A stretch of 39,307 nucleotides of DNA from an uncultured Erysipelotrichaceae bacterium (GTDB lineage Bacteria; Bacillota_I; Bacilli_A; RF39; UBA660), in the NCBI GenBank assembly GCA_902784095.1, contig CACZTK010000042.1, positions 1-39,307 on the forward strand, written 5' to 3'. Of this stretch, positions 22,342 through 28,577 are shown piece by piece. Both the position numbers and the translations under genes were made by a program. Each line of letters opens with the position of its first letter. Within the stretch, counting starts at the first letter, position 1. The notes under the pieces were generated by a model. It had not been told where the DNA came from. It was given only the letters and a program-made list of their open reading frames with translations, and did not search any database.

Positions 22342-23148
22342 ATGATTGATGATAATAGGTTTTATACCTGTAGAAATGATAGAGCGTTTAAAGAAGTTTT
22401 TATGAATGAAAAGAATAAAGATATATTAAAAGTATTACTTGAAAGTATTTTAAAAGTGGAAATAAGAGAAATAAAATATTTAAACTTAGAAAAGAATGTA
22501 GATAATATTAATATTAGAAGAAAACATTTTGACCTACACCTAGATACTAATATTGGAAAGATTCAAGTAGAAGTAAATGCCAAATTAGAAGACTATACAA
22601 GAAGTAGAAATACCGCATTTATTTGTGATACCTATTCTCATGAGGTATTAAAAGGAGAGGATTATTCAGAAGATAGTTTAATAGTTCAAATAAATTTTAC
22701 TTATGGATTAGGAAAGAAAGAAAAAGATTTAAGAATATATAAGATACAAGATGAAGAAGGAATTTTATATATAAGAAACTTCATAATATATGAATTTAAT
22801 ATGGATTATTATAAAGAAATATGGTATTCTAAAGACAAGAAAAAGATAGAAGAATCTAAATATTTAATTATGCAAGATTTAGATAAAAAAGAATTAGAGA
22901 TTCTATCTAAAAAGGATAAGGTGATAACAAAGTATATGGAAGAATTAGAAAGAGTAAATGAAGATCCAAAGTTTAGAGAATTTGTATCAGCAGAACAAGA
23001 CAATAAGATGATAGAAAATACCATAAAAAAATATGCAAGAAGAGAAGAAAAAAGAGAGATAGCAAAATCACTTTTACAAAAAGAAATTAATATTAATATT
23101 ATATCTGAGTGCACTGGATTGTCTTTAGAAGAAATTAATGAATTATAA
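22342..23148 (+). CDS. Rpn-family PD-(D/E)XK recombination-promoting nuclease / putative transposase
   Basis: Characteristic N-terminus NDRAFKEVFMNEKNKDILKVLLESIL and a nuclease core FDLHLDT...IQVEVNAK. RBS AAAGGAG. No terminal inverted repeats were seen around it. Confidence 0.75.
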   Translation: MIDDNRFYTCRNDRAFKEVFMNEKNKDILKVLLESILKVEIREIKYLNLEKNVDNINIRRKHFDLHLDTNIGKIQVEVNAKLEDYTRSRNTAFICDTYSHEVLKGEDYSEDSLIVQINFTYGLGKKEKDLRIYKIQDEEGILYIRNFIIYEFNMDYYKEIWYSKDKKKIEESKYLIMQDLDKKELEILSKKDKVITKYMEELERVNEDPKFREFVSAEQDNKMIENTIKKYARREEKREIAKSLLQKEININIISECTGLSLEEINEL

Positions 23149-23152
23149 TTAT

Positions 23153-23181
23153 TTGACAAAAACAATGGTTTATGGTAAAAT
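23153..23181 (+). promoter_or_regulatory. Near-consensus sigma-A promoter driving leader RNA copy 1
   Basis: TTGACA (23153-23158), 17-nt spacer ending TGG, TAAAAT (23176-23181). The predicted start near 23188 is a few nt before the conserved RNA element. Confidence 0.7.
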
Positions 23182-23190
23182 TACCCACAA

Positions 23191-23254
23191 GTGAGGGGAT
23201 ATAAGGTAGCGAGCTATCCCGGGTGAAAAACCTACACGTAAATTACGGAGTCAC
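23191..23254 (+). promoter_or_regulatory. Unclassified structured leader RNA, copy 1 (candidate riboswitch/attenuator aptamer)
   Basis: The element reads GTGAG, helix GGGATA/TATCCC around loop TAAGGTAGCGAGC, GGGT-GAAA-AACC hairpin, TACACGT-AAATT-ACGG hairpin, and tail AGTCAC. It is colinear with copy 2 and has compensatory helix changes. It sits between the promoter and a terminator. Confidence 0.7.
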
Positions 23255-23280
23255 GAAAAAAATTTCGTGGCTTTTTATTT
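23249..23280 (+). terminator. Intrinsic terminator (expression platform of leader copy 1)
   Basis: AGTCACGAAA / TTTCGTGGCT 10-bp stem with an AAAA loop, followed by TTTTATTTT. The 5' arm overlaps the conserved 3' tail of the RNA element. The tracked GTG start at 23267 lies inside this stem. Confidence 0.85.
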
Positions 23281-23305
23281 TCGCACGAGGAAAGGAGTAA
23301 TAATT

Positions 23306-24118
23306 ATGATAAAATATGAAAATATTGCAGCAGAAACAATATATCGTGGTATATTTGATAGTAACTTATATGCAATTATTAGTGATTATAGTGTAAAAAC
23401 AGTCCAAGATATAATTAATTTGATAGATCTAGGTATATTTGAAGATTATCAATTGCAAAAAATTAATTCTAAAATAGAAAGAGTTACTAAGGCAATGAAT
23501 AAAGCTAATAATAAAGAAAAAGAACTAGTTATATATGATGCAGGTACTTACGAAGATACTGACTTAGAGTATACAGATACACAAAATAATGGTGATATAT
23601 TGTTACTTGCAAATCCAACTAGTTATTCTAGTCCAAGATATGTATCTTTAAAAAGAGTTTCTTTATCAAAAATAAAAGATTATATAGGACTAACTACGGA
23701 AAATGGTGATAATTATCTTTGTTGTAATAGTAGAAATATTGGAAAAGAGACATTATCTAATGTATTAGAGGCAATAAAAATGTATAATGAACAAGTAGAA
23801 AGACAAGCACAGTTAACTAAAAAACGAGATATTAATGTATTTATGTATCAAAAAGAAGAAAAAGCATTATTAGCTAATGATAATTATATAGATATAATTG
23901 ATTATTTATTAGATACTGCTGAAGAAGAACTTATTTGGGGTAAATTATCAGATAATCAAAGAAAACTATATTTATCAACTATAGATAAAAATAGGGAATC
24001 AGATAAAAGAATTAAATCTAGAATAATTGATTATGTTTCAAATTATACAACAGTAGATGAAATGGAAAAAATTAATAGGGGTTATTATAAAGTATTAAAT
24101 AGATTTATAAGAAAGTGA
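23306..24118 (+). CDS. Hypothetical protein (270 aa), no recognisable domain; controlled by leader copy 1
   Basis: ATG 23306 (MIKYENIAAE) has the RBS AAAGGAG 8 nt upstream. The annotated 23267 start lies inside the terminator hairpin. Confidence 0.7.
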   Translation: MIKYENIAAETIYRGIFDSNLYAIISDYSVKTVQDIINLIDLGIFEDYQLQKINSKIERVTKAMNKANNKEKELVIYDAGTYEDTDLEYTDTQNNGDILLLANPTSYSSPRYVSLKRVSLSKIKDYIGLTTENGDNYLCCNSRNIGKETLSNVLEAIKMYNEQVERQAQLTKKRDINVFMYQKEEKALLANDNYIDIIDYLLDTAEEELIWGKLSDNQRKLYLSTIDKNRESDKRIKSRIIDYVSNYTTVDEMEKINRGYYKVLNRFIRK

Positions 24119-24179
24119 GTATGTATAAGTTTTTACGAGCTACATAGGGAGAAATCTTACACGTTTGACACGGAGTCAC
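24115..24179 (+). promoter_or_regulatory. Unclassified structured leader RNA, copy 2
   Basis: The element reads GTGAG, helix TATGTA/TACATA around loop TAAGTTTTTACGAGC, GGGA-GAAA-TCTT hairpin, TACACGT-TTGAC-ACGG hairpin, and tail AGTCAC. It overlaps the stop codon of the upstream ORF and precedes the ABC operon. Confidence 0.7.
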
Positions 24180-24220
24180 TTACTATTTATATAAATGGTA
24201 AGGTCTTGGTGTCATTTTTT
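24166..24220 (+). terminator. Probable terminator / expression platform of leader copy 2
   Basis: Basal helix TGACAC/GTGTCA followed by TTTTTT, with an upper helix CTTAC/GTAAG. It is weaker than copy 1 because of the large internal loop. The tracked TTG start at 24206 lies inside it. Confidence 0.45.
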
Positions 24221-24247
24221 GTTATAATTAGAATAGGAGGAATATAT

Positions 24248-25231
24248 ATGGCAATTATAGAGGTAAAAAAATTATCAAAACAGTTTAGTGTAAAACTAAA
24301 AGAAAAGGGATTAAAAGGAAGTTTTAAATCATTAATAAAACCTAAGTATAAAAAAATTAAAGCAGTTAGTAATGTATCATTTTCTGTAGAAAAAGGAGAA
24401 ATGATTGCTTTCATTGGACCTAATGGAGCAGGAAAATCTACAACTATTAAGATGCTTACAGGAATACTATATCCAGATAAAGGTGATATTAAAGTATTAG
24501 GATATGATCCTAGAATAGATAGAAAAAAGCTAGCATATGAAATAGGAACAGTATTTGGACAAAAAGAACAATTATGGACTCATTTAACTCCATATGATAA
24601 TTTTAAATTCTTTGGAGCAATCTATGATATACCAGAGAAGGTAGTAGAAAAAAAGATTGAAGAATTAAGAGAATTATTTGAACTAGATGACTTTATAACG
24701 ACACCAGTTCGTAATTTAAGTTTAGGACAAAGAATTCGTTGTGAGATAGTAGCAAGCTTAATTCATGAACCAAAAATACTATTTTTAGATGAACCAACCA
24801 TCGGACTTGATCCTGTAGTTAAGGAAAATATTAGAACACTAATTAAAAGAATGAATAAAGAGTATAAAACAACGATATTCTTAACCAGTCATGATGTATC
24901 TGATATTGAAAAACTATGTAAAAGAGTAATTATTATTAATGATGGTAAATTAGTATTAGATGATTCTATGGAAAACTTAAAATATCATTACTTAAATAAA
25001 AAAATTGTTGAAGCTAAAATGAAAGAACAAGTTAATTTAGATGATGAAGACGGAATTACTATTTTAAAAGATAAAGGATATAATTTAAAACTAGAAGTAG
25101 ATACAAAGAAAAAATCAATAGCTGATGCTTTAAAACTGTTAAATCCAGATAATATTGTAGACATAAATATATCTAATACTCCACTAGAAGATATTATTAG
25201 TAATATCTATAAAAAAGGTGATAAGAAATGA
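24248..25231 (+). CDS. ABC transporter ATP-binding protein (ABC-2 exporter type)
   Basis: Walker A GPNGAGKST, Q-loop, signature LSLGQR, Walker B ILFLDEPTIGLD, H-loop SHD. ATG 24248 has AGGAGG 7 nt upstream. Confidence 0.9.
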   Translation: MAIIEVKKLSKQFSVKLKEKGLKGSFKSLIKPKYKKIKAVSNVSFSVEKGEMIAFIGPNGAGKSTTIKMLTGILYPDKGDIKVLGYDPRIDRKKLAYEIGTVFGQKEQLWTHLTPYDNFKFFGAIYDIPEKVVEKKIEELRELFELDDFITTPVRNLSLGQRIRCEIVASLIHEPKILFLDEPTIGLDPVVKENIRTLIKRMNKEYKTTIFLTSHDVSDIEKLCKRVIIINDGKLVLDDSMENLKYHYLNKKIVEAKMKEQVNLDDEDGITILKDKGYNLKLEVDTKKKSIADALKLLNPDNIVDINISNTPLEDIISNIYKKGDKK

Positions 25232-26019
25232 AAAAGTATTTATTCATCTACAAAACAGAAATAATGAGTAATATTAGCTATGCATTTAATTTAATTACAG
25301 GTTTTGTTGGCTATTTTATTCATATCTTTATATTTTTAAATTTATGGAAATATATTTATAGTAATCCTAAAGAACTTATTAATGGCTATTCTATGAACCA
25401 AATGGTATGGTATGTAATAGTCACTGAAATATTATGGATGTGTATTGGAGGAAGAAAACTTTGTAAACAAATAATAAGTGATGTACGTACTGGTAATGTT
25501 GCCTATAACATCAATAGACCATATAGTTATATTTTGTATCAATTATTTAGTAATTTAGGAAGATTTACAGTTAAGTTTGTTTTATTCACAATACTTGGTG
25601 TAGTAATGGGATTAGTATTTTTACAAGAATTTCCTAATATATCTGTTTTAGGTATTATATTGGTATTACTTTCAAGTTTTCTAGCAACTATAATTAATAC
25701 GTTATTTGTTATAGTTATTGGATTGTTTTCATTTTTTATAGAGGATTCTAATCCATTTTATTGGGTATATTCAAAGTTTATTTTAGTAGTTGGTACATTA
25801 TTTCCAATAGAATATTTTCCAAAAGTAATTCAACCAGTTATTAAAGCTAGTCCAATTTTTGCAGTTAGTTATGCACCTGCTAAAATGTTTGTAGATTTTA
25901 ATATTAATAATGTATTTTATATATTATTAGTTCAATTAGTATATGTTGTTATTTCATATACATTATGTTTATTTATATATAGAAAGGGAGTGAAAAATAT
26001 CAATGTTAATGGCGGTTAA
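25228..26019 (+). CDS. ABC-2 family transporter permease
   Basis: About six hydrophobic helices. ATGA start/stop overlap with the ATPase gene. Confidence 0.8.
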   Translation: MKKYLFIYKTEIMSNISYAFNLITGFVGYFIHIFIFLNLWKYIYSNPKELINGYSMNQMVWYVIVTEILWMCIGGRKLCKQIISDVRTGNVAYNINRPYSYILYQLFSNLGRFTVKFVLFTILGVVMGLVFLQEFPNISVLGIILVLLSSFLATIINTLFVIVIGLFSFFIEDSNPFYWVYSKFILVVGTLFPIEYFPKVIQPVIKASPIFAVSYAPAKMFVDFNINNVFYILLVQLVYVVISYTLCLFIYRKGVKNINVNGG

Positions 26020-26797
26020 AAATCAGATTAAGATTTCTTTATTATCTATTAAATATGCATGTATTAGGGAAATGCTTAATAAAACAACATTCATTACTAA
26101 TGTAATTTTTATGATTTTAAATAATGCTTCTTTTATAATTCAGTGGGTTATACTATATTCATTAAGAGAGAATGTTGGAGGTTATTCATTTAAACAAGTT
26201 ATGTTTTTGTGGGCACTAGCAGCATCAACTTATGGTATTTCTCATTTCTTATTTAAGAATGCTTATACATTATCAGATACTATTAATAATGGAAAACTTG
26301 ATTCTTATCTAGTTCAACCGAAGAATGTATTATTATCTGCAATAACATCTGATGTAGAAGTATCAGCATTAGGAGACTTAATTTATGCATATGTAGTTTT
26401 AATTATTTGTGAATGTACAATTAAATCATTTTTACTGTTTACATTTTTTTCAATAATTGGAGGACTTGTTTTAACTTCTTTAGCAATCATTTTTGCATCT
26501 TTAAGTTTCTGGTTTCAAAAATCAGATGCAATTGTAGATACAGCTAATGGTTTAATGACAAACTTTGCAACATATCCAGATGGTATATTTAAGGGTGCAG
26601 TTAAATTTATTTTATATACTATGGTTCCTGTTGGATTCGTAAATTATATTCCAATTTCATTGATAAAAAGTTTTAACATAGAGTTTTTTGCATTAGCACT
26701 TATATTTGATATAACAATAATAGTATTTGCATTTGTAATTTTCTATAGTGGATTAAAAAAGTATTCATCAAGTAACTTGATGATAGCCAAAATATAA
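26003..26797 (+). CDS. ABC-2 family transporter permease (second subunit)
   Basis: About six hydrophobic helices. It overlaps the preceding permease gene by 17 nt. Confidence 0.8.
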   Translation: MLMAVKNQIKISLLSIKYACIREMLNKTTFITNVIFMILNNASFIIQWVILYSLRENVGGYSFKQVMFLWALAASTYGISHFLFKNAYTLSDTINNGKLDSYLVQPKNVLLSAITSDVEVSALGDLIYAYVVLIICECTIKSFLLFTFFSIIGGLVLTSLAIIFASLSFWFQKSDAIVDTANGLMTNFATYPDGIFKGAVKFILYTMVPVGFVNYIPISLIKSFNIEFFALALIFDITIIVFAFVIFYSGLKKYSSSNLMIAKI

Positions 26798-26811
26798 AGG
26801 AGAGTGATAGT

Positions 26812-27405
26812 ATGGCTAGTTTAATGATAGTAACAGGACCACAAGCAGTAGGTAAAATGACAGTTGCAGAACAAATAAGAGATAAAACTAATTTTCATCT
26901 TATGGTAAACCATGACAGTATTGAAATATCTAATAAAATATTTGGTCGTGGTAGTGATGCTCAAAAAAAGTTTAATCAATTATTTAGAGAAGCAGCATTT
27001 AAAACAGCAATAGAGAATAATGTAGATTTAATCTTTACATTTGTAACAGCATTTGATTTAGAAGAAGAAATAGCTTATCTTAATAGTTTAAAAGATATGT
27101 TTGAATCTACAGGAGGTAATTTCTATTTTGTAGAGTTAGAAGCAGATATAGAAACAAGACTTGAAAGAAATGTTACTCCACATAGATTAGAATCAAAAGA
27201 AAGTAAAAAAGATATAGAATGGACTAAAAATGATATTCTAAAAACTGCTTTAAAATATCAATTAAATTCAGATAAACAATTATTTGAAAATCATCTAAAA
27301 ATAAATAATACTAATTTAGAACCAGATGAAGTAGCAGAACAAGTTATAAATAAATTTAATTTAGAGAGGTCTCAAAATGATAGGAGTAATAGTAGCGTCA
27401 AATAA
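26812..27405 (+). CDS. P-loop kinase-like protein (AAA_33 / small-molecule phosphotransferase-like)
   Basis: N-terminal Walker A VTGPQAVGKMT, about 195 aa, size and layout of small nucleoside/antibiotic kinases. RBS AAGGAGAG, 14 nt after the permease stop. Confidence 0.55.
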   Translation: MASLMIVTGPQAVGKMTVAEQIRDKTNFHLMVNHDSIEISNKIFGRGSDAQKKFNQLFREAAFKTAIENNVDLIFTFVTAFDLEEEIAYLNSLKDMFESTGGNFYFVELEADIETRLERNVTPHRLESKESKKDIEWTKNDILKTALKYQLNSDKQLFENHLKINNTNLEPDEVAEQVINKFNLERSQNDRSNSSVK

Positions 27406-28018
27406 AGAATGGGAATTTGTAATTAATTATTATTCTGATATTGATATAAGAGAGTCTTTATATGGATCTTATTTTATTAAAATAATTGATAACAAAGAAG
27501 TAATATTCTTTAAAACAGGATCAAGAAAAATAAGAAGTGCAGGAGCTACACAATATTTAATTGATCATTATAAATTAGAAAAAGTATTACTAATAGGTAC
27601 AGCCGCTGGAGTTAATCATGAATATAATTTAAAAGATGTGTTAGTTCCTAGTATTATTGTATCTGGTGATACTTCATTTATAGAAAAAGGGGAAGGTTTT
27701 AATAATAAATATGTGATTGATTTAGATAATGAAAGTAATATTATAATTTATTCTAGTGATAAACCATTAATTTATAAAGAAGATGTAGAAAATCTCTTAA
27801 ATAATAATGTTACACTTTATGATATGGAAGCATTTTCTGTAGTAGATATCTGTAAAATAAATAATATAGATATAAAAGTAATTAAAGGAATAACAGATTT
27901 TCCAGGTGATTATTCATCTGATGATGAAAAACAATATCTTGAATATAAAGAAAATGTAAATATAGTAATGAAAAAAATATTAGATAATTATTTAGAAAAA
28001 TATATTTTAGGGGAGTGA
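27377..28018 (+). CDS. Nucleoside phosphorylase/nucleosidase family protein (MTA/SAH nucleosidase-like, PNP_UDP_1)
   Basis: MIGVIVASNKEWE N-terminus, GTAAGVN, YDMEAFSV and KGITDF motifs matching the MTAN-type fold. It overlaps the upstream gene by 29 nt. Confidence 0.65.
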   Translation: MIGVIVASNKEWEFVINYYSDIDIRESLYGSYFIKIIDNKEVIFFKTGSRKIRSAGATQYLIDHYKLEKVLLIGTAAGVNHEYNLKDVLVPSIIVSGDTSFIEKGEGFNNKYVIDLDNESNIIIYSSDKPLIYKEDVENLLNNNVTLYDMEAFSVVDICKINNIDIKVIKGITDFPGDYSSDDEKQYLEYKENVNIVMKKILDNYLEKYILGE

Positions 28019-28022
28019 TATT

Positions 28023-28577
28023 ATGAGTTATTATAAGAAACTAGAAGGAGATAGAATTTACTTGTCACCAATCAGTATGGAAGATGCAGAAACTTATACA
28101 AAATGGCTAAATGATAGAAAAGTAACAGATGGAATTGGTGGTACTAAAAATCTAGTTAATATAGAAAATGAAAAAGAATGGATTACAAAGTGTTTACAAA
28201 GTGGTAGAAAATGCTTTGGTATTATCTTAAAGGAAAATGATAAGTTAATTGGTAATTGTGGTCTAGAAGATTTTGATAATGTTGCTAGAAGCGCTACTCT
28301 TGGAATATTTATTGGTGAAGAACAATATAGAAGTAATGGATATGGAGCAGAAGCTATTAGATTACTTCTTAAATATGGATTTGATATTTTAAACTTACAT
28401 AATATAAATTTAGGAGTATTTAGTTTTAATGAACGAGCAATCACATGCTATAAAAAAGTTGGTTTTAAAGAATATGGAAGAAGACATGAATGTTACTATT
28501 TAGATGGTAAATATTATGATCGAATAGAAATGGAAGTATTAGAAAAAGATTATCGTGGTGATATAGAGTTTATTTAA
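28023..28577 (+). CDS. GNAT-family N-acetyltransferase (RimJ/RimL-like)
   Basis: 184 aa with the acetyl-CoA motif region RSNGYGAEAIRLLLKYGF and a C-terminal Y.K.GF.E.G pattern. Confidence 0.75.
   Translation: MSYYKKLEGDRIYLSPISMEDAETYTKWLNDRKVTDGIGGTKNLVNIENEKEWITKCLQSGRKCFGIILKENDKLIGNCGLEDFDNVARSATLGIFIGEEQYRSNGYGAEAIRLLLKYGFDILNLHNINLGVFSFNERAITCYKKVGFKEYGRRHECYYLDGKYYDRIEMEVLEKDYRGDIEFI

Follow-up and report, generated by a model that had tools for sequence, protein, structure and literature searches.

A candidate new riboswitch class of the ON type, acting by transcription attenuation and found in two serial copies before an ABC-2 exporter operon of an uncultured Erysipelotrichaceae bacterium

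Do two similar sequence blocks that precede an unassigned gene and an ABC-2 exporter operon in an uncultured Erysipelotrichaceae bacterium form a regulatory RNA, and of which kind would it be? The blocks are located on contig CACZTK010000042.1 (assembly GCA_902784095.1), of which the stretch from position 1 to 39,307 was analysed in full and is called the window here. The initial annotation, made from the letters of the window, had read them as two copies of a new structured leader RNA of no known class that acts as an ON switch. The testable parts of this reading were supported. The two copies very probably represent a new class of transcription-attenuating ON riboswitch that occurs twice in series in one operon.

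Two RNA copies with overlapping terminators

Both copies follow a common order of AAGTGAG, a 6-nt arm, TAAG, a loop, CGAGC, the complementary arm, a GGG hairpin, (C/T)TACACGT, five variable nucleotides and ACGGAGTCAC. As RNA, this corresponds to AAGUGAG ... UAAG ... CGAGC ... (C/U)UACACGU, 5 nt and then ACGGAGUCAC. The initial annotation had aligned 23191-23254 colinearly with 24115-24179, and every sequence statement in that alignment proved correct. This included the compensatory changes. In P2, GGGATA pairs with TATCCC in copy 1, whereas copy 2 has TATGTA and TACATA, so that four of six pairs differ on both strands. The fourth P3 pair is U-A in one copy and A-U in the other, and all five bases of the P4 loop differ. 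The 3' block ACACGTnnnnnACGGAGTCAC occurred twice in the window, compared to 0.02 occurrences expected from shuffles. The following elements were assigned, with helices designated P1 to P4 and joining segments J.

23153-23181, forward strand: promoter P1, with the -35 box TTGACA at 23153-23158, a 17-nt spacer and the extended -10 box TGgTAAAAT at 23173-23181
23191-23254, forward strand: aptamer copy 1, a four-way junction (covariance model, 79.9 bits; covariation; RNAalifold)
23191-94 with 23251-54: helix P1 of copy 1; J1/2 is G23195
23196-201 with 23215-220: helix P2 of copy 1, with the internal loop UAA (23202-04) opposite GAGC (23211-14)
G23205-C23210: P2a of copy 1, a single closing pair with the loop GUAG
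23221-24 with 23230-33: helix P3 of copy 1; J3/4 is ACA (23234-36)
23237-40 with 23244-47: helix P4 of copy 1; J4/1 is GAG (23248-50)
23247-23281, forward strand: intrinsic terminator 1, composed of a 12-pair hairpin (23247-23274) and a T-run (terminator scan)
23306-24118, forward strand: ORF270, an open reading frame (ORF) of 270 amino acids (aa), with the ribosome-binding site GGAAAGGAG at 23290-98 and a TGA stop at 24116-24118
24113-24181, forward strand: aptamer copy 2, core 24115-24179 (covariance model, 83.8 bits; covariation)
24115-18 with 24176-79: helix P1 of copy 2, with the extra outer pairs A24114-U24180 and A24113-U24181
24120-25 with 24141-46: helix P2 of copy 2, with the internal loop UAA (24126-28) opposite GAGC (24137-40)
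G24129-C24136 and U24130-A24135: P2a of copy 2
24147-50 with 24155-58: helix P3 of copy 2; J3/4 is ACA (24159-61)
24162-64 with 24170-72: helix P4 of copy 2; J4/1 is GAG (24173-75)
24166-24220, forward strand: intrinsic terminator 2, composed of a long hairpin (24166-24214) and a T-run, with a folding free energy (dG) of -23.4 kcal/mol (detected by folding)
24220-24228, forward strand: extended -10 box TGTTATAAT, directly 3' of terminator 2

Promoter P1 matched the consensus in 11 of 12 positions and carried the TG extension. Its consensus places the predicted transcription start at about 23187-23190, immediately 5' of copy 1. The 5' arm of terminator 1 is formed by the final P4 base, GAG and the P1 3' strand UCAC. 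The 5' arm of terminator 2 spans the P4 loop, the P4 3' strand, GAG and the P1 3' strand. Folding z-scores of the extended leaders were -3.67 for copy 1 and -4.04 for copy 2. Copy 2 had been described as overlapping the stop of the intervening ORF, and the TGA at 24116-24118 indeed sits in the P1 5' strand. A 283-aa reading of this ORF from a GTG was not a likely start, and the ATG at 23306 was taken.

A wider RNA family with a conserved fold

Copy 1 and copy 2 are members of a wider RNA family and no mere local duplication. The covariance-model search of other genomes and metagenomes that had been proposed with the initial annotation returned a large family. A first pattern scan of 185,579 species genomes yielded 78 loci, about 45 of them genuine; the remaining matches were due to chance in GC-rich coding DNA. 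The genuine hosts were all low-GC metagenome-assembled genomes, labelled Bacilli, Bacillales, Erysipelotrichaceae, Mycoplasma, Candidatus Onthousia and Candidatus Faecimonas. The covariance model R1 was built from 46 distinct sequences and used with a match threshold of E <= 1e-8. It detected 78 copies in the species-genome loci and exactly two sites in the 39-kb window, which are copy 1 and copy 2. A second pattern scan, in which P4 and the P1 3' strand were left free, was run on metagenomes and yielded at least 120 contigs. Among the matches listed, the contigs originated from human gut, rumen, fermenters, bioreactors and activated sludge. R1 matched in all 120 listed contigs, with counts of 132 and 25, so that the family comprised at least 235 R1 matches (78 + 132 + 25) in at least 166 loci. 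The GC content of the loci ranged from 22% to 49%, with a median of 27%. In the contigs of ORF270 homologues, both RNA copies were nearly unchanged although the protein was just 55-60% identical. A phage origin of the motif was rejected on the basis of two motif matches among 2.9 million viral contigs.

The RNA is predicted from its aligned sequences to be a four-way junction of about 65 nt, composed of P1, P2 with P2a, P3 and P4. Structure statistics were calculated from two model-based alignments with 70 and 121 distinct sequences. Standard pairs filled 95.3% and 94.4% of the cells, respectively, and 26-49% when partners were slid by 1-3 columns. Changes on both sides were present in 13 of 19 and 14 of 19 pairs. 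The observed covariation score was reached by none of 500 shuffles. P2 was the best supported helix, with five of six pairs covarying, 99.7-100% of cells paired and 24 distinct arm sequences. P4 covaried in the very search that had left it unconstrained, with GC 98 and AU 22 at pair 2, UA 47, AU 35, UG 6 and CG 4 at pair 3, and four types at pair 4. The inner pair of P3 covaried as well (AU 32, UA 28, GC 15, UG 14). P1 was nearly invariant (GUGA/UCAC) and showed rare compensatory exceptions. The initial annotation had made its RNA interpretation depend on homologues from other genomes maintaining the helices, and all of them were kept through compensatory changes.

The same four-way junction was obtained with RNAalifold on a MAFFT alignment that had been fitted to no structure. 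A scan of all column pairs by corrected mutual information (MIp) ranked model pairs or the P2a pair in 10 of the top 14 positions, and the other four were columns of neighbouring P2 pairs. The top MIp pair consisted of previously unmodelled bases just inside UAAG and YGAGC, which places P2a as a short helix above the invariant asymmetric loop UAA/GAGC. Its pair types were C-G 28, A-U 26 and U-A 26, or a GAAA tetraloop was found instead. The helices described in the initial annotation thus stood, and P2a, an extra closing pair or short helix in the P2 loop, had been missed. Invariant or nearly invariant unpaired bases were the G of J1/2, UAA/GAGC of the P2 internal loop, ACA of J3/4 and GAG of J4/1, suggesting a natural candidate binding site. 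A structured aptamer, as the definition of a riboswitch demands, is therefore supported by covariation. Two resemblances were dropped by eye since register and pairing did not fit: a likeness of GUCAC/AAGU to the 16S A-site and a kink-turn reading of the UAA/GAGC loop.

Known families were searched with Rfam 15. At the gathering score, no family matched the leaders in a search of the whole window. At E <= 10, positions 23100-24300 gave just chance matches to microRNAs and small nucleolar RNAs, and at E <= 0.5, six further loci gave tRNAs only. No description of the motif was found in full-text literature searches. The failure of the initial annotation to match the leaders to any known class was thereby borne out. 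The fold and consensus, and probably the ligand, are strong candidates for being new to Rfam 15 and the searched literature; the mechanism is of a known kind. The ykkC/(p)ppGpp families (Rfam ykkC-yxkD clan) were rejected because no covariance model matched at the gathering score or at E <= 10. A T-box was rejected for want of an RF00230 match on the leaders; RF00230 did score elsewhere in the loci fetched, and two T-boxes in motif loci regulate other genes. A tRNA-like element gave no RF00005 match on the leaders at E <= 10, true tRNAs being found in other loci, and its stems of 4-6, 6, 4 and 3-4 bp differ from those of a tRNA.

That the RNA is a divergent member of a described family (ykkC, guanidine-IV or Gd4v), or an unnamed candidate of a published screen, appears very unlikely in view of these searches. 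The idea draws on genomic context, which overlaps with that of ykkC-2a (natA-type ABC genes) and of guanidine-IV/Gd4v (GNAT and exporter genes, gut enrichment). The ykkC fold comprises about 100 nt in two side-by-side helical stacks, and the new junction of about 65 nt shows no sequence or structure similarity to it. ykkC-2a resembles the new RNA as a terminator-based transcriptional ON switch of which a subset controls what is probably the same transporter type (PMC6003355; PMC9881157). Tandems of ykkC-2a and a leucine-sensing leader are also found upstream of genes for branched-chain amino acids, comparable to locus L046 described below. In contrast, GNAT genes, which are prominent with the new RNA, are absent from the associations reported in PMC6003355 and PMC9881157. 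A ligand shared with ykkC-2a is only a hypothesis. Guanidine-IV (mepA) and Gd4v are likewise associated with GNAT N-acetyltransferases and exporters, and Gd4v is an orphan strongly enriched in gut metagenomes (PMC9788692). However, both consist of two hairpins joined by a loop-loop pseudoknot, unlike the closed four-way junction of the new RNA, and their genes are SugE, MATE and transaminase instead of an ABC-2 exporter (PMC9788692). Identity with these families, in which the second hairpin is the terminator, was rejected because of the differing architecture and the lack of an Rfam match.

Promoters, termination and the proposed switch

A hairpin followed by a U-run was present in 177 of 194 distinct 3' contexts (at least 91%), starting at or before the end of GGAGUCAC, and therefore consuming the P4 3' strand, J4/1 and the P1 3' strand. 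The median dG of the terminator hairpins was -16.8 kcal/mol. The remaining 17 contexts were mostly cases in which the script preferred a stronger hairpin further downstream. The mutually exclusive layout of aptamer and terminator that had been proposed for the two copies is hence a property of the family, and provides the expression platform expected of a riboswitch. In ON switches, aptamer and terminator compete directly in this way, and no antiterminator stands between them.

The near-consensus promoter described before copy 1 also recurred. Among distinct first copies, 109 of 135 had TTGACA-N16-18-TAnnnT within 80 nt upstream, compared to 0.24 expected, with the -10 box ending 2-10 nt before the model start. 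By consensus prediction, the RNA thus lies on the same strand as the promoter and just behind it, the location of a leader. None of the 60 second copies (42 tandem copies and 18 copies after a gene) was preceded by a TTGACA promoter, suggesting that serial copies share one transcript with two successive termination decisions. Two arrangements dominated: motif, about 50 nt, motif and operon, with 47 cases, and motif, small gene, motif and operon, as in the window. The orientation of the motif was always that of the downstream gene. Leaders that carry complete riboswitches of one class in tandem are known, for example for TPP and glycine, and share with the new RNA the two full aptamer-terminator units in series on one transcript. 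Unlike there, the serial arrangement is the rule here, and often a gene stands between the units, so that the first unit controls a separate product.

Of 49 family members, 31 had a TATAAT box in the interval from the terminator to the ABC start, compared to 11 expected, and it often read TGnTATAAT. It was also present before 20 of 43 GNAT genes and in none of 15 distinct leaders of the M4 family (see below) between terminator and start codon. In the window, TGTTATAAT is probably a second, riboswitch-independent promoter of the ABC operon that bypasses the switch, as judged from its sequence. ORF270 has just 30 nt from terminator to start codon. The M4 genes, having no TATAAT box, and ORF270, having no room for a promoter, would therefore depend on read-through.

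Extended -10 boxes after the terminator were also seen in the leaders of L082, L037, L110 and L148. In L082 (4727-4990) and L037 (5340-5605, minus strand), a long-range helix brackets each aptamer-terminator unit, formed by GUCGAG...CUCGAC and GUUUUCAUAGA...UCUAUGAAAAC. The second 3' arm of the bracketing helix can alternatively form the local hairpin AUAGA-AAAA-UCUAU. At the DNA level, this is a palindrome just after the TATAAT box, and could be a candidate operator.

The promoters and terminators bear on two further explanations. The copies might be stand-alone small-RNA genes with their own promoter and terminator, the neighbouring genes being transcribed separately. The strong promoter and strong terminator of first copies, about 90 nt apart, and the TATAAT box after the terminator before many ABC and GNAT genes would agree with this. 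However, the lack of promoters before all 60 second copies, the absence of TATAAT from the 15 distinct M4 leaders and the 30 nt before ORF270 argue against it, as does the constant orientation towards the downstream gene. Moreover, P1 and P4 are conserved or covary even though formation of the terminator disrupts them, which implies two alternative states. Separate small-RNA genes are thus highly improbable.

Ribosome-mediated attenuation, in which a leader peptide senses translation-inhibiting antibiotics as in leaders known from Term-seq, is an extremely improbable explanation. The controlled genes do resemble a drug-resistance set, and an AUG lies in GUGAGUAUG of many copies. The new RNA has in common with a WhiB7-type intrinsic resistance regulon and with antibiotic-responsive attenuators a similar set of controlled genes (exporter, several GNATs, methyltransferase, nucleotidyltransferase and putative regulators), as well as premature termination in the leader. 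There, however, a ribosome stalls on an upstream ORF, and no conserved upstream ORF was found here. An ATG was present in 109 of 189 copies and absent from 80. The ORFs varied from 1 to 28 codons in differing frames and had no properly spaced Shine-Dalgarno sequence, and conservation tracked base pairing, not codons.

A leader peptide was encountered at a single locus. On the minus strand of L046 (6060-6340), a ribosome-binding site and a Leu-rich ORF of 18 codons, MFIVSNTTNLLLNLLLRL, came after the motif and its terminator, and a second terminator then preceded a leuA-like HMGL gene. In this single case, the sequence indicates that the new RNA stands in series with an attenuator of the classical leucine leader-peptide type.

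Computation established the family, its fold, the overlap with terminators, the placement behind promoters and the gene associations, and from these we infer a dependence on a ligand and an ON direction. The favoured riboswitch mechanism would proceed as follows. Transcription would begin at promoter P1, a few nucleotides before the RNA, and the first ~65 nt would fold as the four-way junction. The 3' third of the aptamer (P4 3' strand, GAG and UCAC) would double as the 5' arm of the much stabler terminator. Without ligand, the terminator would prevail and transcription would end near 23280, and a second time near 24220. In the presence of ligand, P1 and P4 would be held, the terminator would be blocked and RNA polymerase would read through. 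Copy 1 would gate ORF270, and the promoterless copy 2 would gate the ABC-2 exporter, kinase-like, nucleosidase-like and GNAT genes. Since copy 2 has no promoter of its own, full induction from promoter P1 would need two read-through decisions. The second promoter-like box after terminator 2 would probably provide a basal exporter level.

Controlled genes, candidate ligands and implications

The operon behind copy 2 comprises six genes.

24248-28577, forward strand: controlled operon
24248-25231, forward strand: DrrA-like ABC ATPase
25228-26019 and 26003-26797, forward strand: two ABC2_membrane_6 permeases
26812-27405, forward strand: AAA_18 kinase-like protein
27377-28018, forward strand: PNP_UDP_1 nucleosidase-like protein
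28023-28577, forward strand: Acetyltransf_3 GNAT

Across the family, the product of the first downstream gene was an ABC ATPase (53 cases), a GNAT acetyltransferase (44) or an M4-family protein (17). Behind the ATPase gene there were invariably two genes for ABC2_membrane_6 permeases of about 263 aa each. At least four GNAT subfamilies were present, with best, sub-threshold matches to PseH, SpeG, AAC(6')-Ie and RimJ. In a GC-richer bioreactor lineage, the motif preceded double Acetyltransf_3 GNAT proteins. Other operon genes encoded an NTP_transf_2 nucleotidyltransferase that weakly matched ANT(4') and Lnu, S-adenosylmethionine (SAM) methyltransferases, Peptidase_S51, DUF5662, nucleosidase-like PNP_UDP_1 proteins (in two lineages), a protein of the LOG family, NUDIX, MBL-fold and dienelactone hydrolases, and an AAA_18 kinase-like protein. 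The gene associations are coherent.

Small proteins with no assigned function were repeatedly encoded between a first and a second copy. M4 proteins have about 140-215 aa and were found behind the first RNA copy in 17 loci, among them L019 (3780-4400), L045 (1870-2460), L129 and L120. They had no Pfam or PHROG match and carry the conserved motifs LG(Y/F)P...GTYLYKD and YSQFY.DIARN....G..TFH.YIE. By eye, M4 looks like the C-terminal DNA-binding domain of Spo0A. ORF270 had no match in Pfam, NCBIfam or PHROG. Three homologues were found among 5.8 billion proteins, and the ORF270 family comprised five loci, invariably behind a motif copy. An AlphaFold2 model from a 4-sequence alignment reached a predicted local distance difference test (pLDDT) score of just 43.

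These proteins are the basis of a further explanation, in which no small molecule is sensed and an RNA-binding protein (for example M4, M12 or ORF270) stabilises P1/P4 as a protein-dependent antiterminator. M4 (first gene in 17 cases), M12 and ORF270 (five loci) occur repeatedly between the first and second copy. A gene at this position may be compared to the layout of autoregulated antiterminators, such as BglG/SacY and ANTAR systems. However, most loci consist of tandem copies before ABC or GNAT genes and lack genes for all three proteins in the vicinity. The three families are mutually unrelated while the unpaired bases of the RNA are invariant, and none has an RNA-binding domain in Pfam, NCBIfam or PHROG. 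M4 itself resembles, by eye, a DNA-binding fold of the Spo0A-C type. Protein-dependent antitermination is thus considered unlikely, and the ligand-responsive riboswitch is preferred.

Further observations concern the surroundings of ORF270. Its stop is followed by 43 stop-free codons in frame with the ABC ATPase start at 24248 (24116-24250). This is probably a coincidence, since L001 closes the frame with TAA after six codons. In L001 (7430-7560) and L004 (950-1040), in which the ORF is 55-60% identical, the ABC operon was missing, and L001 retained 23 ATPase codons. Copy 2 stood directly before an Acetyltransf_3 GNAT gene, and therefore the leader was kept and the cargo changed. Upstream in the window, an Rpn-family (PDDEXK_2) nuclease or putative transposase gene (22342-23148) separates HI0933-like flavoprotein genes from promoter P1. 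Its absence from the otherwise syntenic L001 and L005 suggests a recent insertion.

If the ligand is a small molecule, a nucleotide-derived stress signal such as (p)ppGpp is one plausible candidate. Plausible to the same degree is a toxic compound or antibiotic that bears an amine and would be acetylated and exported, and a ligand of another kind is slightly less so. An ON switch before an exporter and acetyl-, nucleotidyl- and methyltransferases is a detoxification pattern, which led to the toxic amine or antibiotic. The candidate resistance-type set comprised the ABC-2 exporter, several GNATs, a nucleotidyltransferase, a methyltransferase and putative regulators. We tentatively consider it possible that a toxic amine or antibiotic-like compound of exogenous origin is sensed directly by the RNA, which would then induce this set as an RNA-based inducible resistome in uncultured gut Bacilli. 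The same detoxification reasoning was applied to guanidine-IV and Gd4v, which control GNATs and exporters and are gut-enriched (PMC9788692).

As an alternative reading, the RNA would be a second, structurally unrelated class of (p)ppGpp riboswitch. The nucleosidase, LOG, NUDIX and kinase-like genes together with the putative regulators would suit a nucleotide signal. For comparison of transporter types, COG3694 and COG4587 were taken to be equivalent to PF06182. Among ykkC-2a (p)ppGpp riboswitches, 12 of 105 preceded operons of a natA-like ATPase with COG3694 and COG4587 permeases, the function of which is not known (PMC6003355). A further 23 such cases were nearly all from Paenibacillaceae (PMC9881157). 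The layout of L046 appears, by analogy, to mirror the ppGpp-plus-leucine-T-box tandems of PMC6003355.

Several observations weigh against a new riboswitch class with a defined ligand. The hosts form a fairly narrow set of low-GC Bacilli, so that part of the covariation signal is inherited and not independent. P1 is short (4-6 bp) and near-invariant and thus has little covariation support of its own. Many second tandem copies have a shortened P2 loop (AUUAAAGCU or AUAUUAAGCU) without P2a, retaining UAA and AGC (L049 7836-7903, L145 7265-7330, L143 646-711, L183 1804-1872 and others). These may be a minimal or a degenerate form, of which the latter would count against the riboswitch. Many exporter operons have a second promoter after the terminator, and the leader is then not their sole control. 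The gene associations point to no single ligand. Operons of distant permease homologues found by profile search (L204, L206 and L207), which have the same layout as the ATPase-permease operon of the window, showed no Rfam RNA or motif upstream. The ykkC-2a link was not reproduced from the sequences examined. A tblastn search of plasmids gave cyanobacterial matches only.

If confirmed, the RNA would represent a riboswitch class that is both new and abundant, since metagenomes of human and animal gut, rumen and bioreactors contain hundreds of copies. Its hosts are uncultured Bacilli with small genomes, the regulation of which is almost wholly undescribed. The RNA is short (~65 nt) and has defined helices and invariant junction bases, making it suited to in-line probing and structure determination. 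The controlled ABC type, an ATPase with two ABC2_membrane_6 permeases, has no known substrate and is probably controlled by (p)ppGpp riboswitches elsewhere. Identification of the ligand would therefore explain the long-standing association of this transporter with (p)ppGpp riboswitches. If the ligand is (p)ppGpp, the RNA would be a second, unrelated fold for that alarmone. If it is an antibiotic or toxic amine, the RNA would be a natural sensor driving drug-modifying and efflux genes.

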